Below are positions 9,004 through 62,875 of a stretch of DNA of 64,000 nucleotides, piece by piece. Source of the DNA: Amoebophrya sp. A120. Its lineage: Eukaryota; Protista; Dinoflagellata. Location of the stretch: the NCBI GenBank assembly GCA_905178155.1, contig CAJINV010000010.1, positions 1,633,182 to 1,697,181 of the forward strand. Direction: 5' to 3'. The notes beneath the pieces were generated by a model. That model ran no database searches and was not told the DNA's origin. It saw only the letters and a list, made by a program, of their open reading frames with translations. Numbering within the stretch: position 1 is the stretch's first letter; each line of letters starts with the position of its first letter. Position numbers and translations under genes: made by a program.

Positions 9004-11556
9004 ATGCTCCTCCGTCTTTCCCGCCCGTTGCACCGTGCGGCAGGCGCCGCGCAGCTGCAGCAGAACGCCAACCCGGCCATCGTACGGAAAGGCAGCACGG
9101 GCCTGGCGCCAAACCAGCAGGCGGTGGACGGCAGGGAGAGGTTAGTCGTTCTCGGGTCCGGTTGGGCCGGGTACCCGTTTCTGCAGACGATTGACACCAA
9201 CCAGTATCAGACCATCATCGTCTCACCGAGGAATCACTTCCTCTTCACGCCCCTGCTCGCCAACGCGGCGACCGGCGGAAGCGACATCGGGTCCATTTGC
9301 CAGCCGGTAAGGACGCTTTGCGCGAACAAGCAGGCGCGGTTCTACGAGGCGAAAGCGGTGGCGCTGGACAAGCAGAAACAGATCGTGCAGTGCAAGGCGC
9401 TGGATGGGAGAACCTACCCGCTCAAGTACGACAAACTCGTCATCGCCTGCGGGTTCCAGGCAAATGACTTTGGGATCAAGAACCTGCAAAAGCACGCCTT
9501 TTATCCTGTTGGAAAAGCATCGCACTAGTGGATATATAGAAATCGCATGACAAATTTTATCAGCATGACAAATGGAATTTGCAATGCAGATTCATGTAAA
9601 GGAAGGGATTTCTGATACTGATGCATGACTGCAATATCAATTAGTGCGTCGATGCTTTTGAAATGCATACCTTTTTCATGAAGGAGACCGCGGACGCCAG
9701 ACGGGTACACGACCACGTGATGTCCTGCTTCGAGGACGCATCTATCTACTGTAAATTTCCCGTACACGTACAAATGGAAATGCTGTCTCTGCATGAGAAA
9801 ACTGGGCTTCGATCCTAGGTTAGCATGACAAGTGTTGCGCTCCAAATGGCCCATTTGATGGGTGAAATTTGTGATGCATCTTGTACACGTACGGGAAGCT
9901 TGTATTGCATAGCCTCCACGATCATCACACAAGAACCCGTGGACGACCGGCTGCTCAAACGCACCCTGTCCTTTGTCACGGTCGGCGCCGGGCCGACGGG
10001 GACGGAGTTTTGCGCCGAACTCGCGTCTTTCATCAAAAACGACATCGAGAAGCAGTACCCGTATTTGGCAGAGTATGCAATACAAATTTCCCGTACATGT
10101 ACAAGATGCATCACAAATTTATTCGCTAATTTGGAGTGTACTAAACACTTGTCATGCTAAACTAGGATCGAGACCCAGAAGTTTTGTCATTCAGAGACTG
10201 CATTTGTGCGTGTACGGGAAATTTCCTGTGGATACAGAGCACTGGTCAGTGCACTTGATCGAGGGGGGACCGAGAATCTTGGGTCCGTTTCAGAACGAGC
10301 GGTTGCAGACCTACGGGTACCGACACTTGACGGAGACGCAGGGGGTAAGTTGTCTAAAATGTTACACGCTTCTACAGATTACACTCAGGCATGACAAACT
10401 TCGCTTAGCATGCATTCTAATATGCAATACAAATTTCAAGATTTCCGAAAAAATCTCAGGTCCAAATCCACCTGAATTCCCCCGTCGACTCCGTCACCGC
10501 AAATCGGATCGACCTGAAAACCGGCCAGTCCATCGACTTCTCCACGCTCGTTTGGTGTGCTGGCATCAAGGCGCTGCCCTTCGTGCAGAAGCTGGCTTTG
10601 ACGAAGAACGCCCGCGGAAATCAGATCTTGACCGATGGCCAGCTGAAGGTGAAGGGGGAGGAACACATCTACGCCATGGGAGACTGTGCGACGATCGAGG
10701 TATTATCAATGTGATATACAACGACCACTAGAGTTGCTAAAGATGACGAATGTAGTTTTTTCTTGTCATCATGCAGGAATGAAATGACACTACACATGCA
10801 GCTTGATTTGCCTTGCATAGGCTGCAAGACTAACTTTATTTATCATCCAAAACTACAATATCAGGACTACCCGCTCCCCCAGACCGCACAGATCGCGTCT
10901 CAGCAGGCGCTGTTCCTTGCCAAGTCGTTCAACAAGAAGTCGTCGAAATCTCTCCGGTATGCATTGCAAAAGTATCGTACTAGTAGTAATTGCAATACAA
11001 ATTCGCGCAGCATGACATATGGAATTTGTCGTGCTGATTTGCCTCGGGAACAACGAGATTTGTAATTATGCATAAACGCAATTACTACGAGTGCGACACT
11101 TTTGCGCTGCATATCCGCTTCCAGCACGTCGACCGCGGCATGCTCGCCTACGTGGGCGGCACTTCTGCGTTGTACCGGGCCCCGAACCCCTTTCCGCATT
11201 TGACCGGGATGGTAGGGTACTTTACCTGGCGCAGCGCCTACTGGTCCATGCAGTTGTCCATGCGAAACCGCCTCCTCCTCGCCTCCGATTGGATGCAGCG
11301 GGCGGTCTTCGGTCGGGACTTGACACGGCTCGGCCTGGCGTCCGACCCGATCAACGCCAGTCCAGACGCGTTGACCTCGAAAGTGGAAGAGAAGGATTTC
11401 ATGATGGCCAAAACGCACGGCGAAGGCCCGGAAGAGGACGAGGAGGAGGACCACATTGCGGCGGTTGTGTCCAAGGCCAAACAGAACACGGAAACTGCAG
11501 CAACGAATGGCGGCGTGGTCCGTCGCCGCCCGCAGCAGTCGGTGGCCAGTGCGTGA
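9004..11556 (+). CDS. NDH2: Type II (alternative) NADH:ubiquinone oxidoreductase, 532 aa
   Basis: LVVLGSGWAG, VSPRNHFLFTPLL, YDKLVIACG, VGAGPTGTEFCAEL, IYAMGDCA, PQTAQIASQQA, WRSAY..MQLSMRNR; 4 introners + GT-AG introns 10345-10459 and 10700-10864; spliced length 1599 nt; Arg/Leu/Ser N-terminal presequence. Confidence 0.93.
9502..9669. mobile_element. Introner family A
   Basis: TAT..ATA, TIR core AAAAGCATCG; TSD ccttt/ccttt. Confidence 0.85.
9743..9911. mobile_element. Introner family D (opposite orientation to 10074)
   Basis: TIR core TTCCCGTAC; TSD gcatc/gcctc. Confidence 0.85.
10074..10234. mobile_element. Introner family D
   Basis: TIR core AAATTTCCCGTACA; TSD cagag/cagag. Confidence 0.9.
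10958..11113. mobile_element. Introner family A
   Basis: TATGCA..GCAAAAGT.TCG; TSD tccgg/tccgc. Confidence 0.9.
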
Positions 11557-14543
11557 TAAAAATGCCTGTGGTTTTGAGAAGTAGAGCACCAAAAATGTTG
11601 AAAAAGTGAAAGTACTAGAACTTCTTCAATTTCGAAGGTAGTAGATTTTGGATTTTGGGAACAATAACGCAAGAAATAAGTGCAACTCTGATTGAAGACG
11701 CCACTTCGGTTTGCAACCTTCTTCGAGCTTTTTCTCTACCACTAGCTAGTACTCTCGATCTGCTCTCCGCCTTCGTTTCTGGATTTTGGTACCTTGTGAG
11801 TAGACTCTTGATGCTTTATTCCAGTGAGTATGATGAACAAATGATTCGCACAAACAATTTTCCGCTCGTAGTTCTCGTCGCCTCTTGATGTAGTCGCTAG
11901 ATTTAGTTCTGATGTTGAAGGTATATTTGCGATTCATCCAAATTTACTTCAACGGTACTTATCATGAAAACACTTCTGCAATGACCTCTAGCTCTATACG
12001 CAGCGGCAGCTACCATCTTTCTGATAATTCTGTGTTGTGATTAAAAGCGCAATGAAATGAATTATCGCAAACGAATTTAAACATGTGGTTTTAGGTTTTG
12101 CGCGGAGGTACATAGTTTGTGCAAGAGCGCCAGTGAGCTAGAGCTACAGGAAAATCCGTTGACATCGTTGTTGAGCTAAGATTTTTATTTGGAGTTGAAC
12201 ATCAAGAAGGAGGAGTTTATTTTATCGTAGACACGATCCATGTCATGATCTGCAGCACCAGCTACAATCGCTTCTACATGAACCAACTACATTGCAAAAA
12301 CTGTGCAGCACTTGACTTGCATTGCTTCATAAAAAAGGACTAGAATTCCCACTTCAACCGTAACTATTTTTGACTCAAAAAGTTGTACATGTACACGACG
12401 CAAAAGAAAAACCAACCTTGCCATCATCTTCATCTTTTTTTGAAAAAGATTCCGACCATTTTCAGAAGAGAACAATGCATAGCTTCTACTCACTGTTTTG
12501 ATCGACTTTGGGTTGCAAGAAACAACTTCCCAACTACAACCTGCTCGGGAAATAGCATAGAGCAAAGACTATGAGCATTGGCACATCATGTCGATTTTTA
12601 GTTTGCAACAGGAAGCGTAGTTGTAGCGTAGACTGTCGTGTGTGGCTTTCTTCCAGCGTTTCGAGAGCCTGATAAATTCAGGTCTTTCAAGAAACGCAGG
12701 AAAAAAGAGCGCATGCAAAATTATTCGTCAAAATGCACCACGATCATCTTCCGCTTTGAATTTTCCGCACAAAATTTTCTTGGAAGAGGATCCTGATCAG
12801 CTTTTTTAAGTAACTCTCTTTGCAACACCGACACACTTATTTCAAACCCGGGGTAACGACTACTTAACAATTTTTTCAGCTGTCTTTACGATGGATTGCC
12901 GAGCTCGTTTGATATGAAATTCTCAAGTGTTGAAAGTGACTTTTTTCCCAATTTGTCCGATTTGTTGATAGTAAATGCACCTGCTACCTTATTATGTTGA
13001 AAATAAATCAGATGTGGAGAGCTTTGTCGGTATGAATTTTCCCAGGGCTGATGTTGTTTGCACAGAACTCTGAACCTCCCACACAAAAACTACATCCAAA
13101 CTGTTTGTATCCCAGTACCCTTTTCCCATTTCACCTTCTATTTTTTACCCTTTCCATTTATCCCCGAGGAGTGATCAGATCCTGATACGACGAACCAAAT
13201 TTTCAGTAAACAATTGCGCAAGGTTAACGTAAACTTTTCCTGTAACAGAAAATTGTGAAAAAAGCAAAACTGAGTGGTGCAGGTGCTGTGGGCCGGTGGC
13301 TTTGAGGCTTGAATGGCCGGCATGGAATGCGACTGGTCATTTGCGAACTGGTGTTCAGGCTACAAGATCTACTATACTATTGGAAATCTGTTTCTTTAGA
13401 TTCGTTGCCCACACGCTCCTGTTTGGCGTTTGCTCCCATGTCGAGGCTCAGAGGCCCTTCGTATCAAGATCAACTGAGCGCTGCATTGGCTACACCTGCA
13501 AAAAAGATTTTACTTTCTATGTATATAAAAGCATAGGCAACTGTTGTAGAAATTGATATTTGGCTTTTTTTTCGGCTGCGATCTATTTTGATTTAACTAC
13601 AAGCTCCATTCACGCCAATAGCAAAAGAGGCGCCGTGGTCTGACAATTTGCGAATATGACGCCAACCAATAGCAACGACTCACATATGATACAAGATCTG
13701 ACTCTGACACCACTTCTAACACTATTGGTAAAGCCGAAGCCAAAAGCGATCTATTGCCATACTTTCATATACAACGCGAAGGCCATACGACCATGCTCCA
13801 TATTGAATTTCCGTAACCGTTGTATGCATTTGCATTTGAAGATCTTTTGAAGCATTGGTATTTCACCTCCCGATGGCTGCATAGAACATGACTACAACTT
13901 TTCGCACCTCTGTGATGTTTCTCCAAGAACGATCAAGAAGGCAAGGATCAAGATCTGTCCACCAACGCATGCCCATGCGAAGCGCGACCATTTTTTGTTT
14001 TGAAGGCACTCGATAATATTGACACATGACCGATATTGCTTTACCCACTCAACAACAGTAGAGCATCTTCTGAATCCTTTTCACTTCGAAAATCTTCGGA
14101 TTTCTTGAAGCCTAAAAACTCATACACGTCGGTCTGACGCATTCAACATCATCTTCGGTCTAAGTAGCACTTTTAGCATCACGAGTTTCATCACGTAGTA
14201 GCAATTAGTACGACAACATTGGAACGGCAATAAAATATATTCCAGTAGACGACCACCTTTTTCCTCCTCGCGTCATTTTACGCTCAATCTTACCCGCATA
14301 AAAAAATACACTATTCCACTTTTTGAAAAACTACCTTCTACTCTGCTGCTGAGATTCGTATCTCGCATCTTCTACCCACACAAAAAATCTGAATTTTAGC
14401 CAACTACTGTTCCATTACCGCCGAACTTTGTTCCCTCCATTTCGAGAGCAAAGTTTTCCTGAATAAGCCAGCCCGAAACAAAAGCCAAATCGTTGTATTC
14501 AATGTTACTGACCGCCCAGACAGCCAACACCCAAGACTTGAAA

Positions 14544-17500
14544 ATGACCTCTCCCGCTCAGAATGGCGCCCCGGCCGCTCCGGGTGCTGTGCCCCAGGCC
14601 GCGCCCGCCCCGACGGCGGAGGGTGGCGTCGCGAACGTGTGGAACGTCATCTCCGGTGATACCTTCGAGGTGTGCATGGGCGTGAACAAGGGGCACGTGG
14701 ACTTGAAGCGCATCACCATCGCGGGGATTCTGGCGCCGCGTCTTGGGATCAAGTCGCAGCAAGTGGACACGAAGGATGAGCCCCTGGCCTGGGAATCCAA
14801 GGAGTTTTTGCGGAAAATGCTGTTGGCGAAGAAGGTGCAGTTTCGGGTTTTGTACAAGTCCGCGAGCGGTGTATGCAATACAACTTTCCAGTACATGCAC
14901 AAAGTGCATCACAAATTTCACCAATTTGGACGGTAACACTTGTCATGCTAAGCTAGGATCGGAGCCAAGTTTTGTCATGCAGAGACTGTGTGTGCACGTG
15001 TACGGGAAATTTACTGTGGATACGGGGACCGAGATTACTACGAGGTCCGGATTGCGGGCGAGAAGACGCACGTGGGGTTGAAATCACTGTCCGCAGGAAT
15101 GAGCAAGATCGCCCCGGGGAACCAGGTAGAGATTTGTACTTTATTTCTTGCTGATGCATGTATGACAATTTTTGGTAGTAGCAGTTTACTCTCATGTGTA
15201 TTTTTTCTTGACCTGTACCTAACGCAAAGATTTACAACTGATGCAAAAGTTCATTATATCATCGCGAAAATAAACAGCACAAATTAACTTACGCTTACAA
15301 GTAGACGTCGCTTCTGTTACCCCTTAATTGCTGGGTAATACTACTACTACTACTACTCCAAATTCAGGTGAAATCCCTCAACCTCTACGCGGACTTGGAA
15401 GTCGCGGAGAACGAGGCCAAGTCACAGGCTCTCGGCGTCCACGCCGCGATGGCCCCCGTCCGCGAGCTCGCCGCCGCGAACGACGATCCGGACACGTTTT
15501 TGGCGCAGAACAAGGAGAAGCTCCGCCCCTGTGTGGTTGAATTCATCAAGGACGCCGGGGGCTACCGGGTGGTGTGCCTTCCCACGGTGGAGGACCCACG
15601 GTATGTGACGGTGCAGGTCTTGCTCTCCGGAGTGCAGAACCCAAGCTTCCGAAGGTATGTTTTTATATGGTGTTCTTATAGTTTGTCATGCGTTCTAGGC
15701 AGCTGGAGGCTCTCATCTAAATCTGTCAACATGCACAAATTTCATAAAACTCCATAATCACATATTTTGTTCAACATCGTCATCCAAACATAAAAACAGG
15801 GAAGCCGGGGGTGTTGAGGTGGAGTCACAACCCGGAAACGGTGCCTTCTTCGCCCGCGCGTTTGCCATGGAGCGGTTGCTCGGCAGGGAAATCAACCTGC
15901 GAGTAGAATCCATTCAGAGACAAGGGGCGCCGGGGAGTCAGAACGTATTTGCATCTTAGCATTCTTGCACGACAAGTGGTGATTAACTCTATAATACAGT
16001 TCTGTTCCACATGACGTTGACGTCAAGTTCGTAGAGGTGGTCATGCATTTTGTGAGCATCGATCGAGATTGTTTATTGTACTCAGCGGTCTACTAAATTT
16101 GTGTTGCGTAATACCGTTCCATAGAATTGCGCTACTTCCTCTATTTCAGGTATTCTTCCTCGGGTCCCTCGTCCACCCGGCAAAGGGCTCGATCGCCGAA
16201 TTCTTCCTGGACGCCGGTTTCGGTCTATACGTCGACTGGTCCGCCCAGCGCTGCTTTTCCGGCCCGGAACAGCTCCAAAACGCCCAAAAACGGGCCCAGG
16301 ACTCGCGGAAGGGAAGGTGGAAGAACTGGGACGGCAGCTCCGATTCCTTGGATTCCTTCGAGTTCAACGGAAAAGTCACGGAGATCTGCTCCGGGGATGT
16401 CTTGCGCATTGTCAACACGGAAGCGCCGGATCGCAACGAACGAAGGTAACAACAAGTACCTACTGTATATCATTCTAGCCTGATCTACTTCATCTTGAAA
16501 AAGTACTAGGGACTAGCTCTCCCTCCCAGGATCTTATGACCACACTACGTTTTGGTTTTGCCCTCGGCACCTAGCGTCTTACACCAACATGATCTGCGTC
16601 GTGCCCCTATGTAAAAATGTTGCATTCGAAAAGCGCATTTCTTTGTAGAGGCGGAGCGTCGAAGCGTAGTTCAAGTTTTGAGCGTTTAAATCTCTGTGAT
16701 TAGACAACACAACATCACATGTCCTCTACTTTTTCTATTTGAGAACAACAACTGGCTGTCTATCAGGTACTACCTCGCCTCCGTCCGCGGCCCGCAGATC
16801 ACTCGTGGTGGCAACAACCAAGACGGCTGGGGCCCGGCTGTTGTGGAGTACATGAGGAAAAAGTGCATTGGAAAGCAGTTCAAGGTCCGGTTGGAGTACA
16901 AAAAAAACATCTCTGTCTTCGGAGAAGGGAATGCCCACCCGCCTGCGAGTAACGAAAAAACGGGTGATATGTACTTCGTGACCCTTACCGACGCAAACAA
17001 GAAAAACATCGCGGTCGAAGCGGTCGAATCCGGTATGCTCAAGGTCTTGGCCAACTCTGGTGGGGCGGAGAGCATGAACGAGCGATCGCGCGACTTCGAT
17101 GCTTTGATGGAAGCAGAGCAGGCAGCGATCTTGGCCTCGAAGGGGATGCACGCTGGGGAAGAAAAGGCGCCGAAGCAGCCGGTACTTCTAGGGGGATTTT
17201 TTTTTGTTTTTTGTTGAGCGAGAAGTTGACGAGAACTGTCCATTGGTTCCGTTTATCAGTCTCATTCATCAACATCAAGAGTGATTTTTACGTCGTTGTC
17301 ATACAACCACCATACAATTCATCAACATCTTCTCCAGGTCTACACCGAGCTGATCCTCCAGCCGCCAAATGCCCCGAAGTCCCGTATGAGACTGCACAAC
17401 TCCCCCTCCTTCTCATTTGTCATGCAGGCGCTCTCTGCATGACAGAATTCGGAAGCGCGCCAAACAGTACTACACTAGAACTAGAACTGCATGATGAACT

Positions 17501-19202
17501 TGTCATGCGTAGGCTCCACGTGTACTGGTTTCTGTTTTGCTGTTCATGCCATACAAATGAGGGGGAGTAGTTGTGCACTCTCATATCCCGCGGCCCCACC
17601 ACCAAAAAGGAGCTCACCGAGCGCGCCAAGGCGTTTGAGTCCCAGCTGTGTGCCAACAGGAACGGGCACGACGCCACGGTTACGTATCTGATGAACGGTT
17701 CCAGGATGCGGATTAAACTCATCCACGAGAAGATTCTCATGAACTTCCAGATGAACGGCGTCCGCGCCCCCAACGCGGAGAGGCAAATGCCGGCTACCTC
17801 CGCGATGGCCGCCAACATCCCGAAAGCCGAGCCGTTCGGGACGGAGTCGCTGCAGTTTGCCAGGGAACTGGTCATGCAACAGGACGTGAAGGTGGTCTTG
17901 GACCGCGTCGACCCGGCGGGGACCTTTCAGGGCACGCTGTATTTGAAGAAGGGCGGCAGCCAAAAGGGACCGGACATGGCTACGATGCTGTTGGAGAAGG
18001 GGTTGGCGTACTGCGATCAGTGGTGCAACAACCAGAGCTACTTCACGATCGAAAGCAGGGCAAAGACGGCGAAGTATTGTTGTTGATACAATTTTTGATA
18101 AATACGCTCCTGATTGTTCATCGCTGCCACATGATGATCTTATGTTGACTCTGATCTTATGTTTGTCATGCAAATAACCCAATATCAGGCTTAACTACTG
18201 GTCCGTCGAGCATGAGGACCTCTCTGCCGTCCAGGAGCAGACCCAGAACCTCGCGGGCCAGCCGGTGAAGGGTGAAATTTCCCAGATCAACAGCTTGGAT
18301 TCCTTCTACCTCATTCCCGCGGGCGGCGCGCAGCTGAAGATTCAGAACGAACTGAACCAGCAGATCTCCAAGTTTGAAGAAGTCTCCCACCCGCAGAAGC
18401 GCTCTCTCTACGCCGTGCAATACTGGGAAGACAAGAAGTGGTACCGGGGAAGGCTCGAGGGGAAGGGAACCGAGGGTCAGTTTTCCTTCTTCTTCCCGGA
18501 CTTTGGCTACACGGCGGATGTGGACAGTGTGAGAAAAATCCCCGCGGGCAGCAGTTTGTTGACCACCCCTGGGGTTGCGATGCACTGCGCCTTGTACGGC
18601 GTCAGAACGAACGACGAGTACTGGGAACAGGCCTGCGAAACCTTCTTCAAGTGCACGGAAAAGAAGACCGTGAACGGTAATATAGCTTTAGCAAATGAAC
18701 TGCGCTTGCTTTGCAGACGTTGACGTATGAATATTAGCATGAGAAAATTCTCTTTCACTTTCAGTTTCACCACTCCTGTATCCGCATGACAAAATCTCAA
18801 AATGTAAACTATCCAGGCTCTATCGAGAAGTCCGCTGGCGGGCAGTCGTACTGCGTTCTCTTCGCTTCCGGAATCTGCGTCAACGAAGCCCTTGTGAAGG
18901 ACGCCGTGGCCCGATTGACCAAGAAGGAGAGCAAGCCGCTTTCTGTCGACTACAACCAGTGGAAAAAGGCGGAGACGGAGGCCAAGCGCGGCCGCGCCAA
19001 GATGTTATGAACTGCAAAAGTATCGTACTCGTATTGTAATCATGCATTACAAATCCTGTTCTTTAGGCAAATTAGCATCTGAAATTTTATTTCTCATGCT
19101 GAGGAAATCGAAATTTGCAATGCATCTATACGAGTACGATACTTTTGCAATTCATAGATGTGGCGCTACGGAGATGTCGGCTCGGATGACGAGGACTACT
19201 AG
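14544..19202 (+). CDS. SND1: Tudor staphylococcal nuclease (Tudor-SN/p100), 938 aa
   Basis: SN-domain motifs VISGDT, IAGILAPR, DEPLAWESKEFLRK, ICSGD, YYLASVRGP, AEPFGTESLQFARE; Tudor KWYRG..FFPDFG; C-term MWRYGDVGSDDEDY*; 3 introners + 7 GT-AG introns (15126-15367, 15655-15799, 15945-16149, 16446-16766, 17182-17337, 18074-18188, 18677-18816); spliced 2817 nt. Confidence 0.92.
14872..15022. mobile_element. Introner family D
   Basis: Similar to 10074-10234; TSD cggtg/cgggg. Confidence 0.88.
17385..17585. mobile_element. Introner family C
   Basis: TIR TATGAGA.TGCACAACT; TSD tcccg/tcccg. Confidence 0.9.
19006..19156. mobile_element. Introner family A
   Basis: TIR TATGAA.TGCAAAAGTATCGTACTCGTA; TSD gatgt/gatgt. 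Confidence 0.9.
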
Positions 19203-19638
19203 ACGAATGCGAAGCGCTACTTCTTGTTCACACCGCGATGTTTTTTTCAAAATCGTCGTGTTGACAGGTGATAAATAGCCAGTCGTCAGACTCATACTGT
19301 GCAACTACCAGTACAACTAGTACGAAACCGAAAGATGATGCTAGATGAAATGCGTATAATGTAAGGACCACTCCAAAACACGAATACAACACTCTCGTGT
19401 ATGCAAAAACAGTTTTTCAAAGGGATTCAGAAGATTGATTTTTCACATGTCAAGACTGTATCAAAGGTGCAGGTGGCTTTATTGCAGTTGGATTTCGTAG
19501 GCTGCTGAAGTTACCGTGTGCGATCTTGATGAAAAATGACAAACGCTCTGCTTTTGGCGCGGATCATAGATGTTTTTTTTCTTGCTCAAGAATAGAATAG
19601 AAGTACTTTGAACAACACACTTCCTCGTGGATAATGTG

Positions 19639-22599
19639 TTGGCGAGGTATTCACCGATAGGTTATTTGAGGTTTATTTCCGACAGACTGCAATTTTTTTT
19701 GGCGAAAAAAAAAAAATCGCTGGGCTGAAGAGCCCTGATTGCCTTCGCGCTGGCAATCGGAGTTGTGGCGTTTAGGAGCCTGCGTCGCCTGAGCTTTTAA
19801 GCCACTAGCTGTTGACGGACATTGGCCCCCATCGCATTGCTTAATGTTTTTCCGGGTTGGCCTGTTGTGCTAGACCGGGTCGGGCGGGTCAGGACCTGCG
19901 TGGCTTGACGCGCAAGATCGCACGCAGCGCGCAGCGCTTCCAGGCGTCTTCGTGGCCCCCGTCCTGTGACAGTGGGGCCGCATTGAATTCGGCCTGGCGC
20001 ACCAGCCACACCGGCGCCCGACGGTCCCGGCCAAGAAGACGCCGCGGCGCGGTGAAGCGCTCTGCGAAAACTTTTTTGCTATGGGCCGGCGGCACAGCTG
20101 ATGGGTTCGCCTGCTTGCGCGGCCTCCCCCCTGGCTTCGCGATGGCTTTGGTGGTTGGCCGGCATCGGGCCTCTCCCAAGCAAAGGCTGGGGTCTCGCAT
20201 TGGCAGCGGTGCTTGAGGAGCAGCACACCACCCGGGGTCCTGAAAAGAAGAGCAGGCTTGGGCGGCCGGAAGTCTTTGCGGGTCACCGCCATGCCCCGGC
20301 GCCCGGGCCCGGCAGGGGCGTTCTTTTTCCGGGCCCCCCGCGCGGAAGGGGGGGTAACAGCTGCCTAAGAAAAATGCCCGGCCGGCCCCTGGATACAAGC
20401 GCGCCGGCCAAAGAAGGTGGCGAGCAGGGAAACGCAATGAAAACCGCCAAGCCCCAGCCTCCCGCGGCGGCTGCTTTTGCCCCCGTGAAAGCCCCCCGAA
20501 GCCTGCCCCCCCTATTCTTAAAGCTTTGCCCGGCGCCTGCCGCGGCCCGGCCGCGCAAAATGCTGGCGCGCCACAACCGCCCCGGCGCGCCTTCCTGCTC
20601 TCAGGAGGCGCCATCGGCTGCCGGGCAAAAAGAAAAGGCCGCCGGCGGGGGGGCCAGCAGGATGCGCGACTAGCTCGGCCCCGCCCGCGCAGGTGCTTAG
20701 GCTGGGGCTTGGGGCCCGGGAAAGGTGTCGCGCGGCAGCGGGGGCAGCTCTATGGGCAAAAAGAGACCGCCCCCGCGCCCCGCGAATGGGGCGCAGCCCC
20801 GGGGACAAGAAAGGAAGCGACGCAACCCTTTGCATTTTCCCCAGCTATCGCGGCTTGGCGCCGTTGTTGCCAAGCCGCCCGTGGGCCGAGGGCCAGCGGC
20901 CTGCGCCCAGGGGCGGTCCTCCTCGGGCAGGACTGCTCACGGGCGGCGACCGCTTGTTCGCATGCCCCCGGGCCTGCCGCGCCCCCCGGGCGACCCCGTC
21001 CGGGGGGGTAGTTGGAGGTAAATTTCTTACCGGGCGAAATTTGCGAAATATTTAGGTTCGTCTGCCCCTGATATTTACAAAATATTTAGCTCGAAACGCG
21101 ACCACAGTGTTTTCCCATTGAAATCATTAAGGAGCCGAATCCGGCCGCGTTTCGAGCTAAATATTTTGTAAATATCAGAAGCGTTCCGAGCTAAATTTTC
21201 GCAGTGTTCCGGCAGCCGGGCCGCGGACCGGATTGGCGCTCCGCGAGGGCTTCCGGGGCCCCGGTGGTGCCTCTCCGACGCAGGCAGCAGGGCGACGGGC
21301 CCCAAGCCCCCGCCCGGGGAATGCAGGGTGGGCCCGGGGAAGAACTCGTGGGCAACGTGAAAAAGGCCGCAGAGGCTCCGCCGGCAAGGCCGGCGTCAGC
21401 GATGTCCGCGTGGGGGCTCTTCCGTTGCCCGGCCGGTCGCCCAGAGGATGTGGGTGGGCGGCCCCTTGGTTTCGGGGAAGGCCCCTGCAGTGGGAGAGGG
21501 TTATCGCAAGCTACGTGGCGCGCGTGTCCGCGCAACACCCGGGGCCCCCCGTCGCAGACCTTAGCCCGCCGGATGGCGCCGCCGCCTTCCGAGCCACTAT
21601 CGCGCCCTTGTGCCCGGGCCCGGCCGCAGCGCCTTTTTGGGATTTGCCCTCTGCCCGGCGGCACGCGAGGAAACCACGCAAAAGGCCCAAACCCCCGGCA
21701 GGCCGCGGCCGGAAAAAAGACCGGGCCGCGGGGCGGGCTTACCTGGAGACGCGCCGGCAGCCGGCCGCGTTGTTTTTCCGCCGCCCGGGCGCGTGTGCAT
21801 GTTTCTGAAGTTCCCGAGCACCGGCCTGGCTTTTTGCAGAAATCCCCCCGCTTGTATTGCGCAAATCGGCCGAACAAAGCCGGCGCGCAGCGGGTGGCCC
21901 GGCGCTTCCTTTACCATGCCGCGGCCCCGACGCTCCGTTGGGGCATCCTGGCAAGCAGCCTCGAAGGACACGGAGCAGGGGCACGCGCAGCCGGGCAGCG
22001 GCCACACGGGGGGGCCGCGGCGTAAAGGGAGGTGGCAGGGGCCAAACGAAAACAGGCAGGTCGCGAAGGAGGGTGGGAGGCCATGCGGCAATTGCCTGCT
22101 AGTGTGGGGCCCGCAAAAACGCAGCGGGGCGAAACCACACGCACGGGCCGCGACGCGGTCTCGCCGCTGATGGCCGTTCCCCAGTCTTGGGTCGCTTCGA
22201 AAAAGTAGGCGCGCCAGGAGGCGCCCCGGCCTTTCCTTGAGATAGGCCGCCTGGCGGTTTCGGCAATGGGCCTTGCGGCAGTGCACGAAGCCCGTGCTGC
22301 TGCGGTAAAAATGGCTTTTGGGGGTGCGGAGGAGTTCCGGGTGGTGTGCCTTGCAGTGTGGCGTGTCGCTCGGGAAAATCATCCGTGCGATTAGCCCGCA
22401 GCGTCATCTCCTTGCCGCCCTCATGGGGGTGAGTGTGTGTCGTGCCCCGTGCCGTGCAGCTGACAGCCATAAAGGAGAGGCCATGCTCAGGGGCCCCCAT
22501 ATCAACTCACGACTGGCCGCGGCTTGGCAAAAATGAACTTTGCATCCGAAAAATGTCGGAAATTTCGCCTGCAATACCCATCGGGCGATTCCTCTCCAA
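19639..22599. mobile_element. ~3-kb GC-rich non-autonomous element with imperfect TIRs and a central perfect inverted repeat
   Basis: 19639-19684 vs reverse complement of 22554-22599 roughly 70% identical (shared atttccgaca); no TSD or transposase found. Confidence 0.55.
21068..21178. repeat. Perfect 33-bp inverted repeat with 45-bp spacer
   Basis: CTGATATTTACAAAATATTTAGCTCGAAACGCG at 21068-21100 and its exact reverse complement at 21146-21178. Confidence 0.95.
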
Positions 22600-23464
22600 A
22601 ATGTGCCTCTACTATGTTGATGGAGACTTTTTCTTCTGGGTCTTCAAATCAACATGACTTGAAATCCTAGAGAAGTTGGAGTTGTTGAGCTATTGCTTTA
22701 CTACTACGATTCAACAACTTGTTGTTATTTCTCTTTTTTAACAACCACACGCACAAGCGTGCTGGCTATCAATGTAATCCAACTACGAACACGCGTCCAT
22801 GTCCTGACGACATGGACCAAACTCATCTTATTTTAACTCATCGAATGCGATTGCGAAGATTTTAGACAACTGGTTTTTCCCACAATAAGATCAATCTAAA
22901 CGCGAACGACACCATGGTAGTTTTTGTTCGATTTGCTTTTACGAAGTCAGAAAATAAACGCGACTCTATGTTGTACCGACATTTTGCTGCATGTCCATGT
23001 GCATGATGTGTACTTACCTAAGGAAATGAACCACTACCGGAGTACGAATCAAAATCATCAAACGAAAACCCGTGTTTCGCTACGAAAAACTTTACTACTA
23101 CCAAGTAAAGCTAAGAATCCAGGGTCGGAAATTACGTACTTAGATTTTTTTTCGCACACGACAAGGAACACATCACGGCAACATGATCATTGCTTTTCAC
23201 GACGTATTTTCGACTACACGCATGATTCACGCATGGAGATAAGTTTTAGCGCCAAAAACCTTTCTTGCACGACAAATTTTTGTCGTGCGGTGTTGTGCTA
23301 CCTTGCTTTCATCTGTAGAATCGAGGCAAATGGAAATGCGAAGAAAAGAAACAATTTAATGCAGAAGTAAAAAAGGCAGCGCCATTTGCCTTTCCGCAAT
23401 CTGGGGCTTCTGAGGAAGCCAGCCGTGTTCGAGTAAGTACAACTTGCAGGTGAAGTAGAGGGTT

Positions 23465-26949: not shown

Positions 26950-29900
26950 ATGGTGTTCGGCATGTTTGCATCGGCGGAGGATCCGCCCGCGCCAGCGGCG
27001 GATACCAGCGAGATGCTGGAGGAGAATCTCGAGGAAAACGACAATGCGCTGGCCCACGCCCCCGTCGCTTCGAAAAAGCCAGGCGGGATTGGCAAGAACA
27101 AAAAATCCGCTGGTGCCGAGGGCGAAACCACGGGTGTGGAGCTGGCAGCGGTCACGATTGACTCGCCCGCGGCATCAAAGGATGACAATTTTGATCGTCC
27201 CCCACCGCCGGCGCGGAAGACGACGGAGATGTGGACGGGGGAAGACCCGAACACGTTGAATCTGAACATGATGAAATCCGAGAATCTGCCCGAGTGGTTC
27301 ACGTCTGGTTTGGAACAGTTTGATAAGGATGGGGACGGGGAGCTGCACAAGGACGAGATTATGCACTGGGTTAATGTGATTTTGCGGATGCGGCAGAAAA
27401 AGGAGGCGAACGCCCCGGATATCGACTACAGTGAGTTTCTATGCATTGCAAAAGCATCGTACGTAGCATAAATTGCATTACAAATTTTCTCAGCATGAAA
27501 AATTGAATTTGTCATGCTGTTTTACCTTGGAAAGGAGATTTTTCATGCATGCCTGCAATTGGTACGAGTGCGATACTTTTGCACAGAATAGTTTCCGCAG
27601 CAGGTGAAAGATGTGATGGCGCGGTGGGATGTCGATCAAAACGGCTTGATCACGGTCAGTGAGCTGGCGGCGGCCGGGCAGGCACAGGAAAAGATGGAGA
27701 AGGAGAATCGGTAAAAAGGGATTCGGATTGTAGTTTGTCATGCGAAAGTTGAAATCACATTCACACTCTTTCACACTTGTCTCGTCTTCCAATGGCAATA
27801 CGAATACTGCTCTATGCAACAGAAATTCCGTCTTTTCGCCTGAACAACAGGTACATGAAGATCGCAATCGCGGGTCTGGTCGGTGTGATCGTTTTACTGA
27901 CGGTCCTCATGTTCGCGATGGGCTACGCTGCCGCGGAAGCTTATCAGATTGGAATCAGTTTCGTACGTTGTTGAGTCGCTAGAAATGATGGGAAAGTTTG
28001 TCATGCAAGAAAGTACACGATGAAGTTTTGATCTTCTGTTCATCAGTTTGAGTTTGATAAGCAATTCTGTCATAGTACGAAGACATGGTCGACAGGGAGG
28101 ACCAATGCAGAGAATGCAGCGTCTGAATTCCCACTGGCAAGATGAACTCAACGAGCGCCCTTTTGCTCCCTCTCGATACCTCTTCCAAGGACTACCGCCC
28201 CGCGTCTGCCGACCACGGCCGGCGGCGCGCGCTGACCGAAGCTACTCTCGCCTCCGAGCAGTCCGCTATGCATTGCAAACGGATCGTACTAGTGCAAATC
28301 GCATTACAAATTTGCTCAGCATGAAAAATAAAGTTTGTCATGCCGGCTTGCCTTGGAAAGCAGTTTTGTCATGCATATCTGCGACTTTAGTACCGCAAGA
28401 CCGCGATTCTTTTGCGTCGCATATGAATGTACGGCGAACGCCTGCGGTTGCTGCACGCGGAGGGTGACGATTCTTCCACGTTGAAAAATCCCCCTGGGAC
28501 GTTTATGGAGGAAGATTTGACCATGAGCACGGCCATGTGCACGAACGTTCTCACCGGGATGGGGGAAGTCATGGAGATTCTCACCACCATCAACCCGAAA
28601 TCCGCGGGGAGACTGCAAACGCTCACTGTTCCCACTTCCCAAGGACAGAAGGTGATCCAATTCTCGGGCGTGACCGTGTCGGACAGGCAGTCCTTGACCG
28701 AAGGGTCCATCCGCGAGTTCTCCCAGGAGGGCGGTGGGCCCAAGATCCGGCTCGTGGCCCCCCCGATGCCGATGTATAACGCGACGGATCCGTGCTTTGT
28801 CTACCCGGAGCGGCGGATGGAGTTTGTGGACGGACAAAGTGGAAACATTGACGTGGTGACCGAGTATTTTCTATCCCACAACGGCTGTCCACCGGTGACC
28901 GGCCCGCCGCTGCCGAATGGAAACCCCGCTTGTGCGCCCCCGACGCCTTTATTTAACGGCTCCATGCCGGATCGGGCGGCCTGTGTCGCCACCGTCCCGA
29001 CGCTGGTGGTACAGTGCGAGGCGCAGAAGCCGAACCCGGTGGGGATGGGGACCATGCCCGCACTGCACACCTACTGCGTGAACGGAATGTGCAATCTGGG
29101 AAACTTCACGATCTTTTACAACGTGATGCCGAACAAGCCGCTTGGCCAAACCGCGGAGACCGTGTTCCTGTTGTGGGACACGAACAATGACACGATTGTC
29201 GACGAAATGGAAATCAACCGGGGGCAGGGCCAGGCGGCCCCGGACTTCCAGCACGCGCAGCAAAGTTTGATGACAACGAGTCAAACCGTGCAGAATTACG
29301 TGACTCACGCACTGGTGCACGGGAACACCACTACCAGAAGACGGATGTTGGAGGCGCAATTGATCGCTGGGACGTTCGAGACAGAACGGCGGCTTTCGGA
29401 AGACGGTCAGACCGAGCGGACTTTGATGGCGAAGCCGTCTTGGTGGACGGCGGGAGATCCGCGGCGGATTACCGACATTGCGACCAAAATCTGCATGGTC
29501 AGCAATAGTATCCTGTGCAAAAGCGTCGTACTCGGTTACTTCATCGGATTCGTGCAAGACAAATTTCTGGGTCAACCTAAATCAGCATGACAAGTTCCAT
29601 CTGTCATCCTGAGCTGCTAATTTGTATTGCAATGCCACGAGTACTATGATATTTTTGCAGTTCATACACAGCCACTGCGCCAACTCGGTGGAAGCGGATC
29701 GATTGGCAGAGGCTTTGTGCGAAGGTGACAAAATAGTACGTCTCTTTCATGATTCAGGTTTCGACCTGCTTGCAGAAGAAAGCAACATAAATAGTTCTTT
29801 CATCCCTTGTGCTTCTTGATTCTGCATCAGCACATGATCCTGTGGTCCCTGTGCAGTTACAAAAATCGCTATCAAGAATTCTGATGTACTACTTACGCAC

Positions 29901-32900
29901 GACAAACTCTACAAACAGGTAACGAAGCGCTGTGCGAGACCGCTCCGGCTATGACCCGTTCTTTGGACCGTGATGGCGACGGTCGCGTGAATGAACGCGA
30001 ATACGAGGCGATTCACGAGAAAGCGCGTCCGGATCCCGACGCGCGGAACCGCCGCGACGTTGAGGAGCCCAGGCCGGATTCCGATGTTTGCCCGAATTTC
30101 AACACGCCGGATATCGGCGACGGGATTGACTGCGGGTCGGAGGAAGACTTGGGGAAACTGAAAGACATGGCGGACAAACGTTCCTGGTGCTCGAAGGCGG
30201 CGGGGAGAGACGGCATTCTGGATAACGAAGAGTGCAAAAACGCCAATCGCGTCCCCACAGCTTTTGACACGATGGCGGAGATGCAGGCGCAGGGCGACGT
30301 CCGGATGAAATCGATGATTGAAAACAGTGGGGTCGGACTCCCCGCGTGCAAGCAGTTTTACATGCGGGAAAAAGCTTTAGATGATCCTGTCGCTGAGGTG
30401 ATCTGCCACATCCGGGATTTTGAGTACCCTTTCATGGATGAGTCTTCCGGTTTGTCCGCGAAGGAGGCGAACCTGGACATGGGACTACTGCTGGAACGGT
30501 ACGGGTCGGAAGGCGCTTCCGCGTCTACCACCGTCCGGAAATTGCAGCAAGAATTGGGGTTTGGGAAACGCACTCGGGACAAATTCGGGAACATCATCAC
30601 GCAAGAGTCCGCTTTGGCGCGGCAGGGCACGGATGTGCAGGATGACCCGTTGCACTACCACGTGTTCGAAAAACTTATCAACACGCCCCGCGCCCGCCGG
30701 ATGGAGCAAAAGATCATCAACAAAGAGCGGAAACTTCGTCAGAAGCGGCGGATGCTGCACGGATCGAACTCCGAAATGTATGAGTCGTGGCTTTTGGCGA
30801 GACGGCTGAAAGCGACGGAGAAATTGCGGAGACGCCGGGTCTTGCTTGCGTTTGACGAGGAGAAGGATGACCCGGAGGTCACCCACCGCAAGTTACAGTC
30901 GATCAACCGGCGACTGGAGCAAATTTCTGAAGCGAAGAACAGCGGCGAAGCCGCCAGTTCCCTCCGTCGGTTGGAGCAGACCGGTCGGAGGCTGTTAGCG
31001 GAAGATGATGATGGTGATCGAAAGTTGCGGTTCTTACTGGACGATGACAACCACTTGATCACGCGGAATTTACAGCAGTACCAGCAGGAGTTCAAGATTG
31101 GCTCCACCTCGCGGCACATGCGGGAATTGATGACGCTGACGCACGCGGGGAAAAGAAACTTGATCAGTTTGGAGCAGATTGGGGAAAAGGTCATGAATTA
31201 CATCATCACCGACGATGTCGATGGTCTGCAGACCTGGGCCATGACCATGCTCCGCAGCGACATCCGCATCTCCATTCCGAAGCAGGCGATCTTGTACTTG
31301 CTGTACGACGCCCGCGACCCGTTGGGGATTGGGATGGGCGTGGCTCGGTATTTGGATCAGTTTATGTCGGACAACCAGGCGGAGGAAATGCGGGAAGAGA
31401 CCGGGCGGATGCCGGAGTCGCAAGACTTTTCCCGCTACGACCGCGACGGCGAGACCCTTGCCGACGTGCGGCCCCGCATGCGGCAGCTGTCCCACCAAAG
31501 ACGCGTTTTGGTCGAGATCGCAGAGCGGCGCCGGATGCGGGCCTTGCAGGAGAAGGATGGGAATCAGCGACGGAAGTTGCTGGAAGAGACTGATTCCATT
31601 CACCGCCGGCTACACGAAGTGGCACGGCACGATCCGGACGAAACACGGGTGTTGAACTCGGAAGAAATTCGGCAGATGAGCGAACAAACGCCGTTGAACG
31701 AGCGGGAGACAGAGCGGGTGATTGAACACTGTCGGAGGGAGAATAGAGACTTGGAAGGGGCGCAAGCGCGGCAGTTCACGCGGTTGCTGAAGCAGCTGGA
31801 TTTGTCCGACTCGGATATGAGTGCACAACTCCCCCTGCGCCTCCCCCTCATTTGTATTTAGCATGAACAGCAATACAAACTACACCAGCACACGCAGAGC
31901 GTATGCATGACAAATTTCTTGTGTGCCCAATGTAGTGCTTCTTCTTGGGCTCCTTCCGGAATCATTTGTGATGCAAACAGTGCCACAAGGCAGCGACTGG
32001 ATTTGGGGTGTTGCATGACAAATGAGGAAGAGGGGGAGTTGTGCACTGTCATATCGGAAAGGCGGGAACTCCGAGACGCCGCGGAGGATGCTGGGATGTC
32101 CTCGGATCGGGATGAAGAGCCCGTGGCCTGCACCCCGTGCGCCTTAGCCACCGCTCCCACGGTTGGGATGACCCCGGACCACTTACGGGATGCCGTGTTG
32201 AACAACAACGAGCGACAGGAGGGCAACCCGGACTGGTGCGCCACGCAGTTCCAGGACATGCAGGCCATGGCGGTCAATGTCCCCACCTGTCTATGAGAGT
32301 GGACAACTCCCCTTCCCCTCATTTGTCTATGCAAAATCGCAAATTCAGGCTGTGCCTCTTGGCACTGTTTGCATGACAAGTTCTGGTAGGAGCCCAAATA
32401 GCACTACACTCCAGTGGAAATTTGTCATGCAGAGCCGGCATTCTTACTGATGCTTGTATTGCAGTTCATGCTATACAAATGTACTGGAGGGGGAGTTGTC
32501 CACTGTCATACTGTCTCGGCGCGAGTCAGAACGCGACTACGGGGGAATACATGACCCCGATCGCGACCTACCCGGCGGACCAGCCGGTGACCTTGCCGCG
32601 GGTGCCGGAAGCATACACCGGCGCGATTGCGGCTGCAAACACCGCTCCGACCACGGGGAATTTGATGGCGGCCGGGTCGGTGACGCCCCAAGCCGGCGAC
32701 GTGATCGACCCTTACACCTGCGCGGGCGCGAAGCCGCCGGCCCAGCCCGGAGCGGCGGCGGCGATTCCCGACACGCAGTTCCCGACTTATGCCCAGGCGG
32801 GTGGAACTAGGCGAAGTTTAAGGACTTTTGACCAATCGGACTTGGTATTGACGACGAAGCCGAGAAACCTTTCGAAGCAGCACGTCAATAAACACAAGCG

Positions 32901-35900
32901 GCCGAAGGGGCGGAGTCTCACCGCGAACGTGTCTCCCTCTCTGGATCTTTTTGCGCACTATCAAATGCAAATATGTCTGGGTCTGGAAACCTGTGATGCT
33001 GAAATGCGCATGAGTGAAACGATTGCAATAGCAGCCAAGCATGACAGGTTTTTTGAAAGCTTATTTCATTCTAATGCCCAGCACACATTAGACATCACGA
33101 ATTGCATTTCTGCATGACAAAGCAAGCTGCTCTTTTGCCGCTCGTGCAACACAGATTTTTCAGGAATGCAAGATATGCATTGCAAAGTCCAGCTTCCCAG
33201 ACCCAGACATACTTGCAATGCATACGCACAAGTCCAAGCCCATGTCGTACGCGAAACAGTTGCAGAGAGAGCAGGAGGTGGAGATGCGGCGAGTCCGGAG
33301 GGAGCGACGGTTGTTGGAGGAGCACATGCAAATCGGGAATGACGAGCCTGGTACAGCTTCTTTGAGTAGGAACCCAGAAGCGGAGATTCTCTACGACGGG
33401 AACGGTCGGAAGCTGATGCCGGCGCTCTCCCAGACGATTTGCCAGTCCGCGAACATCCCCGATAGTGAATACCTTTGTTGCCACACGGGGATTTGCATCA
33501 CGGAACACGCGAATCCAACGCAGATGGAGAATCCAGACCGGGACATCACGCAGGGCGGGGAGCCGATGGCGCGGATGGACCCGGAGCCGCCTGCGCCGGT
33601 GACCTTCTCGCAATTCGTGGATCGCATGATGCATGAATTACCCTCGTGTAAGAAACTTCCCCCGGAGGAGCGGCAGATGCCGCTCGACGCGGCGACCCAG
33701 AACTTCGACCTCGACCACGACCACACGTTAGCTTTCAACATGGAAGTGGACAAAATGGGCCCGGGGTGCGTGAAGGAGTGCGGCTGCCACTACTTAGGCT
33801 TGCATCCGAACACCGGGGAAGATGTCTTGGTGAACATCTGCAACTACCAGGCGGAAGTCCGGTGCGGCTGCATGAAAAACAAAAAGCATTGCTTCGACGA
33901 GATCATGCGGACCTGGGAAGAGAAGGGAGGAACCCGCGATGAGCGGGGGAACAACCGGAGGGCCAGGATGCAGCGGCGAGAGCGCCGCCGCCGGAATCTC
34001 CGGGAGAGCCGGTTGCAGTCCGGAAACTTTCGTCGGTTGACGAAGTTCGACGTGAAGAAAGTGCATCACAAAGTGGAGATGCAGAAGGACCACAGGGCGC
34101 ACTTACTCCGACGGGTTTTGCAGGAGAATGACGTGGAAAAGATCGAATCCTTTGAGAAGGAATTCCATCTCGGGTTCGGAAAACGCCACAAATCTTTCCG
34201 GGTTTTGACCGGGAAAACCGGGGACCGGTTCCGACAGCTCGCGGTGGTCGACCATTTCCACCGCCGGCTGCGACGGCAGCGCCGGATGTTATCTACTTCA
34301 CAGACAACCGGCGTCCACGAAACTGCGCTCGGTTACCACAACATGGGTACCGCGGTTGCGACCGGTGTGGTCGCGATGGCGAACCCGGCCACTTCTCCTC
34401 CACCGACGACTGGTCCGCCGAGCTACATCGAGTCTGCCGTTACCACCGCTTGGCTGCCGGACACGACGACGCCACTTCCCCCTAGACCCGCTACCATCAC
34501 CGAGACCGCGACCACGCCGCCGGCTTTAGTGACCCCGATTTCCGGGAACCGGACCACGCCAATTACGGTAAAAGCGGTGATTGACCAGTCGTTCTTCGAC
34601 TCCCGGGACGGCATGTTCAAGCAACTTTTGTACATGGACGTGAACCGGCGGGAACCTCCGCCCAGAAACATTACCGCCGACCCCTACGACACGGTGATTT
34701 GCGCCACGTTTGAGCAGAACGCGAACACCCACGCCCCGCTCACCGAGTGTATGAACGCGATGCCGTGGGACCCGGACGTGATGGGCTATCACCCCCAGTT
34801 TTTTGATGACTACCACGCGGGGACAGTGCATTGCCCCACGGGAAATGACAATGACTGGTCGGGAACGGCGTATGCGACCGCGATGGCGAATTTCGACGGG
34901 AACAGAAACGGAGACGACATTGATTTTCTCCAAAACACTATCCAAGAAAAAAACTGTGTAAGTGTAACTTTGTGTTGCAGAAAATGCAAAACTTTTACAC
35001 TCGTCATGCTGGACATGCATCAGAGGATATTTTCGCACGTGTTTTCAAGTACTAGCTAGGCATGACAGGTTTTCTGCGTCATGCAGAGCAAACTTGTGAC
35101 GCTATTCTTCCAAGAGACTTACACTTACACAGTTTTTTTCTTGCATAAACACCCCGGAAGGGTACACGTGTTTCGAGGGCATGATGGTGCCGGATTACAC
35201 GGTCAAAGAACACGAGGACGAAATGTCGAGTCGCAAAACTTCTGGCCAGGTCTTGCATGAGGTTTGCAAGCCGCAGCAGAACCCCTTCGGCCCGGAGTTG
35301 AAGATGGAGTTGGAGAATTTCGCTTACGAGCACTTCACGGAAATTGACGCGTGCCCGGACTGCTGCGAGGGCTTTCCGACGCTTGGGGATTTGATGCTGC
35401 ATGAAGTGCAGCTTGCGTTCCCCGAACCGGGAGTTTTCCACAATCGGGAACTAAAGCAACCAGCGCTGCGACGGCAGTTCGACGCGCTTGAAGCTCGGGT
35501 CGGCACTTCCCCGAACGTCCAGGAACGGGCGCACAACAGCGTGATGGAAAAGGAGTTCGGTGCGCACAGCATCATCGAAGCCGTGACGTTCGGAATTGCT
35601 TCTGGGGATATCGCCCCTCTGATTGAGAAGGCGATGGACAAATCTGGCGATATTTTCGATTCGATCAAGAATTACGCGAGCCGGGATCCGAGTAGCGATG
35701 AATTGACGTTTGGGGAAATCAAAGCTTATTACGAGGATTGTCAGAAGTCGCAGCGGCCGCCCGGTTTGAGCTCCGAAGTCTGCGAATTGCTGAACAAAAT
35801 GATTGACATTCTGGAGCAAAAGATTCTCCCCCCGGCGTCGGCGGGTCGGGATGCCATCCCGGCGACGGCTTCAATTTCCCGGATGGAAATCATGATATCA

Positions 35901-46189: not shown

Positions 46190-47099
46190 ATGCTCTTTGA
46201 CAGTGGACGTCTGAGGATTTTTGCTGGTCGGATTCTACATGCAAGTCTGGGATCCAACTTGTAAGAACACGGACAACAATATTAAGTCACACCTATATTA
46301 AACTGAACATGTAGATGTAGTGCAGCTAGTTAGTAGAAGCCCATCATATGAGCATGCTCAGTATTGATTTTTCCGAGGAAATAGATCTAGATCGCAATTT
46401 GAAATTAAATAAGAGACTCGAAGTACCATAACCATTCCAACCGATAAGTATTTATTTTCGCGGAGACAGGAGATGTTGCTCCTCTCTCACTACTTTTACC
46501 ACGACGAAAAACGATACTCATGCCTTTCACCTGGTAAGATTCTTATGAAACTTCTGTAGTCACAGCAGTCATTTCATATACGTAATAAAACAAAAACGCC
46601 ACATAGTAGACACAGGATTAACATGACATTATAGACATCAAATTTACAGCACACGTAAGTCTCTACTTAATGCATTTAGTGCGAGTTTCAGTTTCATTTT
46701 TGATTTTTTTTCGAACGATTTCCGTATCCGTTTATCAACACCAAAACTCTCGACCTCTGGTTGCCAATTGAGGTCGATCACTATTTTTTGGACTAACGCT
46801 ACAGATATTACAGTTTCAAAAACAAAAAGCACTGATAGAGCATTGAATATTTGCAGCCCGCGATTGGGTGCTCGCGTGGGTCATTTCTTGCTGGCGCAGC
46901 ACATGACTTTAAGAACTCGTTTCTATTTATGAATCAGGACGGCTAACAATCTTCAAAGAGGAATATACCTAGAGGATGCTTCTGTCTTGGTGTTTCACAT
47001 GCGACAGCTGACAAACTAAGATCAAAGAACAAAATATGAATCAGATTTGCTAGAAGAGTATGGAAAAAGGTCGCTGTAGCATCACGCTACTGCTGTTGC

Positions 47100-61478: not shown

Positions 61479-61489
61479 TTCCTAGAACG

Positions 61490-62640: not shown

Positions 62641-62875
62641 ATCTCTTTCCGAATCCGAGGCCAACATTATTTAACGAAGTCCACATTTCTTCATGTTCAT
62701 CCATGTGTAACATATGCACTCGGTCGTCTGGTTTGTGGTTGGTTTTCTTGTGTTCTCTCCATCGCTTTATTTTGGTCCTGGTGTAGCGTCCATCATCAAA
62801 TGTTGTGGTCTACAATTTTCATCTCGAAATTGAAAAACTTGTTCTTCTCAAAACGAAAAAAAATCGCTCATTCCT

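Follow-up and report, generated by a model that had tools for sequence, protein, structure and literature searches.

Readable introner junctions of Amoebophrya sp. A120 fit a single 1 + 4 excision register, and the introners share a 10-base motif with neighbouring GT-AG introns

The window analysed here is a 64-kb stretch (64,000 nt, contig CAJINV010000010.1) of the genome of Amoebophrya sp. A120, and all counts refer to it. It contains 52 introners, i.e., intron-forming elements that start with TAT and end with ATA. All readable junctions of mismatched repeats fit a single register, in which the intron begins one base before TAT and ends four bases after ATA. On balance, we favour the reading that this 1 + 4 register is fixed, with a modified spliceosome as its most likely cause, and that the neighbouring GT-AG introns are probably mostly older and share with the introners a selected 10-base mark. 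The elements themselves are already known. The available text of Farhat et al. (2021; PMC7789003) describes introner elements of A120 and A25; those of A120 have inverted repeats starting with TAT, direct repeats of 3–5 nt over the borders, and hairpins, whereas the inverted repeat in A25 is TTA-purine-purine. It also reports that U1 was not found. In that text the border is called “unknown” and the sites “variable”, and a fixed 1 + 4 register, a donor read as N-TA, and an internal 10-mer are absent from it. What is new is the fixed register, which makes a stated open question testable. No statement of a fixed register or of the 10-mer was found in the literature searched, which mostly did not cover subscription papers.

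The element catalogue was compiled by script and by hand. It consists of 54 TAT...ATA elements, of which 52 are the introners and two are GT-AG introns (10700 and 18074); with nine further GT-AG introns this gives 11 canonical introns. The picking of introners was seeded on TAT and ATA, so the first three end positions are partly built in. The TAT-starting inverted repeat of the 52 introners also has a conserved run of A at about positions 11–13 (profile of 84 ends, with pairing taken by position). Perfect 5-mer direct repeats flank 32/52 introners and do not extend to a sixth base (13/52 and 10/52 matches). The introners form families, with a best score above 60 after masking of the motif in 43 of the 51 scored. 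Their core lengths group near 150–170, 200–240, 250–280, and 290–320 nt, and one introner of 840 nt (55757–56596) apparently carries a nested insertion (about 55970–56550) bearing its own inverted ends. No TAT...ATA introner was found in 3,259 nt of RNA-covered untranslated region (UTR; 11557–13263, 14057–14543, 19204–19632, and 22600–23235), where seven would be expected at the rate of the coding sequence (CDS; P about 0.001), and none in the intergenic DNA of the window either.

The introners are missing from mRNA, as seen at five joints in contig X1, which is presumed to be RNA, and at 12 junctions in the protein P0001. Cutting out the core plus 5 nt per element leaves open frames of 145, 532, and 938 aa in three genes. 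X1 comes from one contig run and supplies all of the direct RNA evidence; nine of the 11 canonical introns have joints in it, and the other two are P0001 junctions. P0001 is a 2591-aa NCBI protein that matches an open reading frame (ORF) of the window at 100%. It is an annotation from a gene set made with transcript alignments, and for junctions within 30000–64000 this database protein is the basis. Three raw-read sets (4, 0, and 130 reads) contained nothing useful for junctions.

The register is described here by k, the count of left-repeat bases retained in the mRNA. Mismatched 5-bp repeats were found in 22/54 elements; leaving aside the two GT-AG introns and element 37387, there are 19, the number given in the initial annotation. 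Twelve of the 22 junctions were readable (four from X1, seven from P0001, and one from the paralogue P0002) and ten were not. The register proposed beforehand, with bases 1–4 from the left copy and base 5 from the right copy (k = 4), was the only one that fitted 12/12. In X1, the joint 10952->11114 of intron 10957–11117 (GT..CG under k = 4; all introns and genes given here are on the forward strand) takes base 5 from the right copy of the repeats TCCGG/TCCGC, giving k of at most 4 for this element (10958). At intron 14871–15026 (GT..GG under k = 4, repeats CGGTG/CGGGG), joint 14870->15027 keeps base 4 of the left copy, giving k of at least 4 (14872). The X1 joints of the two GT-AG introns set k at 2 or more (10701; range 2–5) and 4 or more (18075; range 4–5). 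Among the P0001 junctions, that of intron 28266–28427 (repeats TCCGC/TGAAT) reads S-V-Y and fits k = 4 alone; registers 0 and 1 both give a stop codon there, as had been predicted. The others require k of at least 4 (35896, 36653, and 37387), 3 (27942), 2 (36357), and 1 (29509). At intron 1735–2010, with repeats CGAGC/CGATG, the E-A-G of the paralogue P0002 is obtained with k = 4 only. A register of k = 5 is violated at 10958 and 28267, that is, at an RNA and at a P0001 junction, and k = 3 is violated at six. If registers were uniformly random, which is a crude null, the chance of nine non-canonical informative junctions all admitting k = 4 would be 4.8e-4, or 7.9e-5 when the paralogue is included.

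Under k = 4, the intron has the form N-TAT ... ATA-NNNN. The one base before TAT and the four bases after ATA add up to the length of the 5-bp target duplication, and excision therefore restores the coding sequence. The first dinucleotides of the 52 introners are then AT (16), GT (14), CT (13), and TT (9), with no sign of a preference for GT targets; AG ends occur in 3/52 and the GT-AG combination in 1/52 (58510). An AG one base away was left unused in three cases, 10074 (X1), 29509, and 36357 (both P0001). The first of these, intron 10073–10238, starts with GT and has an AG 1 nt to either side, and its joint 10068->10235 skips 166 nt, i.e., the core plus 5 nt. The fixed introner register is well supported and is an addition to what is known of these elements.

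The right end of element 37387 (intron 37386–37599) bears CATA in duplicate, and the P0001 model cuts the element 4 nt past the inner end of the terminal inverted repeat (TIR). A cut at the perfect repeat would remove 218 nt and give a 4032-aa frame, whereas the database model removes 214 nt, shifts the frame, and ends at 2591 aa; this one junction decides which of the two is the frame of the large gene. The gene-model pipeline behind P0001 retains the longest ORF offered. In RNAfold predictions the inner TIR end was favoured (0.65–0.75 vs. 0.18–0.23). The shorter-frame model, together with the predicted inner-end folding, thus favours a ruler that would start from the inverted repeat, rather than slippage on the direct repeat. 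At position 5 of its left end, this element carries T in place of the family's A, so that pairing with the outer CATA is possible as well.

The initial annotation had regarded the canonical introns as aged introners. The strings on which it relied are all in place (CGAGG|core 10701–10860|TCAGG, CGAAG|core 18075–18184|TCAGG, and GCAGG|core 58511–58832|CCAGG), and the same 11 GT-AG introns were recovered, with an exonic G following 11/11. Such a G would follow equally from duplication of the target and from the preference for AG|G that spliceosomal introns show in general, and is therefore not discriminating. All 11 have GT...CAG ends and are spliced (X1, P0001). Intron 10700–10864 of the NDH2-like gene has a 160-nt core with TATT...AATA ends, a 4-bp pairing run, and the motif only with two mismatches (X1 joint 10697->10863). 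Intron 18074–18188 of SND1 has TATTG...CAATA ends that pair over 5 bp, and an exact motif at 18162 (X1 joint 18073->18189). Terminal pairing runs of at least 4 bp at introner geometry are thus found in 2/11 canonical introns (P = 0.002; interiors shuffled 20,000 times), and the remaining nine have runs of 0–2 bp. The 8–20 nt inverted repeat is absent from both 10700 and 18074, which show 10 and 9 matches in 20. With the motif masked, their scores against the 51 elements of the window were 31.5 (z 2.0) and 26.5 (z -0.2), respectively, and none of the 11 canonical introns rose above shuffles (z -1.1 to 2.2; 20 shuffles each). Traces of direct repeats were rejected, since positions 1–2, which are free of the AG, match in just 3/22 cases and in 0/4 for the named pair; TCAGG, the supposed right repeat, is the commonest canonical acceptor (6/11). 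The enrichment of ATA at -7..-5 of canonical acceptors did not hold, as it was seen in 2/11 (P = 0.03), just the two introns picked, and in 0/9 others. The canonical donors have GTA in 10/11 and G at +5 in 2/11, with no +5 G consensus. TA at +2/+3 in introners (k = 4) and in canonical donors makes up a shared core of both classes, and the lack of a +5 G consensus is in line with the U1 not found in the available text of PMC7789003.

A route from introner to canonical intron is nevertheless open. The intact introner at 58510–58836 is GT-AG under k = 4 by chance of its target site, which makes it an entry point; its frame is open after removal, and it lies outside RNA coverage. Among non-canonical introns, an ageing series consists of 27942, 51741, and 58219 (3/51 scored, with the nested 840-nt element excluded), which have no kin above shuffle and have kept their ends and the exact motif. 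In this series, the TT..TC intron 27941–28182 has 4-bp ends, one exact motif, and a repeat diverged at positions 1–3. Repeat mismatches increase as family similarity drops (rho -0.33, P = 0.019; 37387 excluded). A hexosaminidase gene model covering 51741 was searched for, and none was found.

The age of the 18074 intron was judged from a comparison of 150 SND1 relatives. P0003 and P0014 are short ORFs from assembly contigs, seen as ORF ends; they are 76% and 60% identical over the exon, respectively, and share 57% identity between themselves. The final residue in both is K at 18072–18074, whose last base is the first base of intron 18074, and P0003 reads through the site of 17385, a young introner with a perfect repeat (17384–17589, X1). 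The simplest reading would be that both relatives have a phase-2 intron there, with a donor of G followed by a stop triplet rather than GTAT. Since the relatives' ORFs end there, the position is likely older, and 18074 as an aged introner is likely wrong. It may predate the A120 introner families, its ends having come to resemble those of introners through drift or selection. Ancient conserved positions had been named beforehand as evidence against the aged-introner reading, and for 18074 such a position is indicated indirectly, through ORF ends. A code with reassigned stop codons was set aside as the cause of these ends, because Q and W occur inside both ORFs and A120 and A25 have L as the following residue. 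A shared position fits the figures in the available text of PMC7789003, where 19.4% of A120 introns are at A25-shared positions and 98.6% of these are canonical. A metagenome scan gave two SND1 loci (L001 and L002), both intronless.

The 10-mer GCATGACAAA is found within one mismatch in 51/52 introners and 6/11 canonical introns. Exact copies number 30 in 11.7 kb of introners and five in 1.9 kb of canonical introns (5/11 introns), with none in 26,387 nt of intergenic/UTR sequence and none in 24,007 nt of CDS. In 300 dinucleotide shuffles of the canonical introns, a mean of 0.003 had an exact copy, compared with the 5/11 seen. The earlier statement that most canonical introns hold the motif or a near variant is right, with both strands counted, for the exact copies at 10389–10398 (inside intron 10345–10459), 15682–15691 (reverse orientation, inside 15655–15799), and 18162–18171 (reverse orientation, inside 18074–18188), which are entered as unstranded features, for those at 18784 and 27734, and for 29897 with one mismatch; 15967 needs two. 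The exact share of sites is higher in canonical introns (5/7) than in introners (30/128, P = 0.013), and in a post hoc pooling it is higher in diverged introns (9/13) than in young ones (19/106, P = 2.6e-4). Single motif copies occur in both orientations and at varied distances. A neutral fossil should decay, and the motif sharpens instead, which argues for selection on it. As judged from sequence, GCATGACAAA resembles a mark kept in introns by selection more than it resembles a fossil, and its strand independence points to possible recognition in double-stranded DNA. Because the motif looks selected, its sharing is no proof of descent.

These data were used to weigh two explanations of the canonical introns. 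Most of them could be aged introners in which GT and AG were acquired before the inverted repeats were lost. The intact GT-AG introner 58510, the 4–5 bp ends in 2/11, the motif common to both classes, and the ageing series all agree with this, as do two figures in the available text of PMC7789003, according to which 15% of the canonical introns of A120 carry direct and inverted repeats together and 24.8% of A120-specific positions have canonical sites. We nonetheless consider this origin unlikely for most of them, as masked homology is seen in 0/11, the repeat traces fail, relatives of 76% and 60% identity apparently have the 18074 position too, and the A25-shared introns of PMC7789003 are almost all canonical; furthermore, a decayed relic should not exceed young copies in consensus likeness. 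The motif in canonical introns could also be a leftover, without present function, of introners that inserted into older introns. Introners occur at high density (52 in 24 kb of CDS), they nest, as at 55757–56596, and the motif is found in both orientations. However, no relic homology flanks it, canonical introns contain none of the variants GCATTACAAA, GCATGACAAG, and GCATCACAAA that are common among young sites, compared with five copies of the consensus, and the 3,259 nt of RNA-covered UTR hold none. This explanation seems doubtful to us. The aged-introner headline is only partly supported: a minority of canonical introns, of the 58510 type, do come from introners, and the class is probably a mixture in which some derive from introners and many are older.

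The mechanism that we favour for the introners would involve a modified U2 spliceosome, without U1, that takes N-U-A as the donor. The acceptor would be measured from paired or protein-bound ends, four bases past ATA. The ends would pair in the RNA, the spliceosome would do the cutting, and the motif may act in intron recognition. No branch-point consensus could be established near the 3' end of the introners, since A at -7 is fixed, yet -9 is T in just 23/51; a branch-like YTRAY is present in the last 60 nt of 5/11 canonical introns.

Several known systems resemble the A120 introners, as far as the available texts of the cited papers go. The nonconventional introns of Euglena (PMC12501133) likewise have paired triplets at fixed spacers and free terminal dinucleotides, and non-slidable introns were used there to find the register; they differ in having CAG/CTG, spacers of 3 and 5 nt, and a purine after the intron, whereas A120 has TAT/ATA, spacers of 1 and 4, and no purine rule. 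The A120 introners work like these introns and are not members of the class. The introners of Gozashti et al. (2022; PMC9860276) share TIRs, target site duplications with the borders inside them, and an mRNA length unchanged on removal, but those families bring or recruit GY and AG, whereas in A120 any target serves and GT-AG results in 1/52. In SOS splicing (PMC12779559), TIR elements are also removed at the RNA level without GU-AG, but at many cut sites and with indels left behind; in A120 there is one exact joint per element, as seen in contigs, which hide rare forms. The non-canonical introns of Fritillaria (PMC13326754, PMC11282704) are transposon-derived too and are handled by an adapted U2 spliceosome, but U1 and a dinucleotide preference at the ends are kept there, whereas the A120 ends are free.

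The reading favoured here has a number of points against it. Just two of the non-canonical informative junctions were read straight from RNA, each limiting one side of k; the upper bounds stand on three junctions (10958, 28267, and 1736), and 10 of the 22 mismatched repeats are not among the junctions read. P0001 is an annotation, possibly from the same RNA as X1, so that its independence is uncertain. Contigs lose rare variants, which makes minor registers invisible, and frameshifted products from skipped AGs could be degraded and hence unseen. The sites are called variable in the Fig. 3 legend of PMC7789003. Terminal pairing is only 3 bp in 17/52 introners, so that the feature recognised may be the sequence and not a stem. 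The rise of the motif with divergence is post hoc and has a small n, and the age of 18074 is drawn from ORF ends, not DNA, while two other short matches end at non-intron places. A register that varies between elements inside the repeat, with the fit of k = 4 due to chance or annotation bias, would agree with the few direct RNA readings and with the statement in the available text of PMC7789003 that the position of splice sites with respect to the hairpin varies. We regard it as quite improbable, given that k = 4 is admitted at every readable junction and both k = 5 and k = 3 fail; perfect repeats let mappers slide, which would account for the published variability. The main rival keeps the register as real and assigns the cutting to a structure-reading nuclease and a ligase that remove the hairpin, either Euglena-like or SOS-like but precise. 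The free terminal dinucleotides, the Euglena-like arrangement of a paired triplet with fixed spacers (PMC12501133, available text), the predicted stems that join the ends in 58510, 14871, and 10957, and the U1 not found (PMC7789003, available text) are in its favour. However, TA at +2/+3 equals that of canonical donors, U2, U4, U6, and 83/89 spliceosomal proteins are reported present in the available text of PMC7789003, old elements with 3–4 bp ends are still spliced (27942), and SOS splicing is imprecise as described in the available text of PMC12779559. We hold non-spliceosomal removal to be the less likely option and infer the spliceosome as the cutter of introners.

The genes that carry these introns are as follows in the window. 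The NDH2-like gene (9004–11556) encodes 532 aa after removal of six introns, and its Pfam match, Pyr_redox_2, fits the name NDH2 given in the initial annotation. The SND1 (Tudor-SN) gene (14544–19202) encodes 938 aa after removal of 10 introns (seven GT-AG and three introners), has Pfam matches to SNase and TUDOR, and has an A25 orthologue, the protein P0004. A large EF-hand gene (26950–46190) has 33 introns and many R-R-L motifs, and its part at 27000–29999 is without X1 coverage. In the SND1 3' UTR, contig X1 skips 2967 nt (19633–22599), a GC-rich element between 6-nt direct repeats. It has TTGG...CCAA ends, with 20/34 positions matching, and a central 57-nt inverted repeat at 21047–21199; no Pfam match was found in seven ORFs of 19639–22599. 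This is a spliced element of a second kind or, alternatively, an insertion missing from the allele of the sequenced RNA. The region 61430–62700 is very AT-rich, unlike the remaining window, and is possibly organelle-derived.

Non-canonical introns make up more than 60% of those in A120, and the describing paper placed no borders for them and named no mechanism. The fixed register turns this “unprecedented variability” into one rule and explains how introners can land harmlessly anywhere in coding DNA. With it, gene models can be corrected without RNA, and lariat mapping and minigene tests gain exact substrates. The 10-mer, if it is indeed a selected mark of introns, would be a concrete candidate for a U1 replacement. 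As a tentative extension, which we think has a modest chance of being right, the A120 intron code may have been rebuilt around a transposon: introns would be cut by the 1 + 4 ruler and flagged by a strand-independent 10-mer from the subterminal repeats of the transposon. The flag would take the place of the missing U1 and would have spread by selection to older host introns, which would also drift to TAT...ATA ends. If this is true, the traffic would be two-way, with introners becoming GT-AG introns and host introns adopting the introner code.

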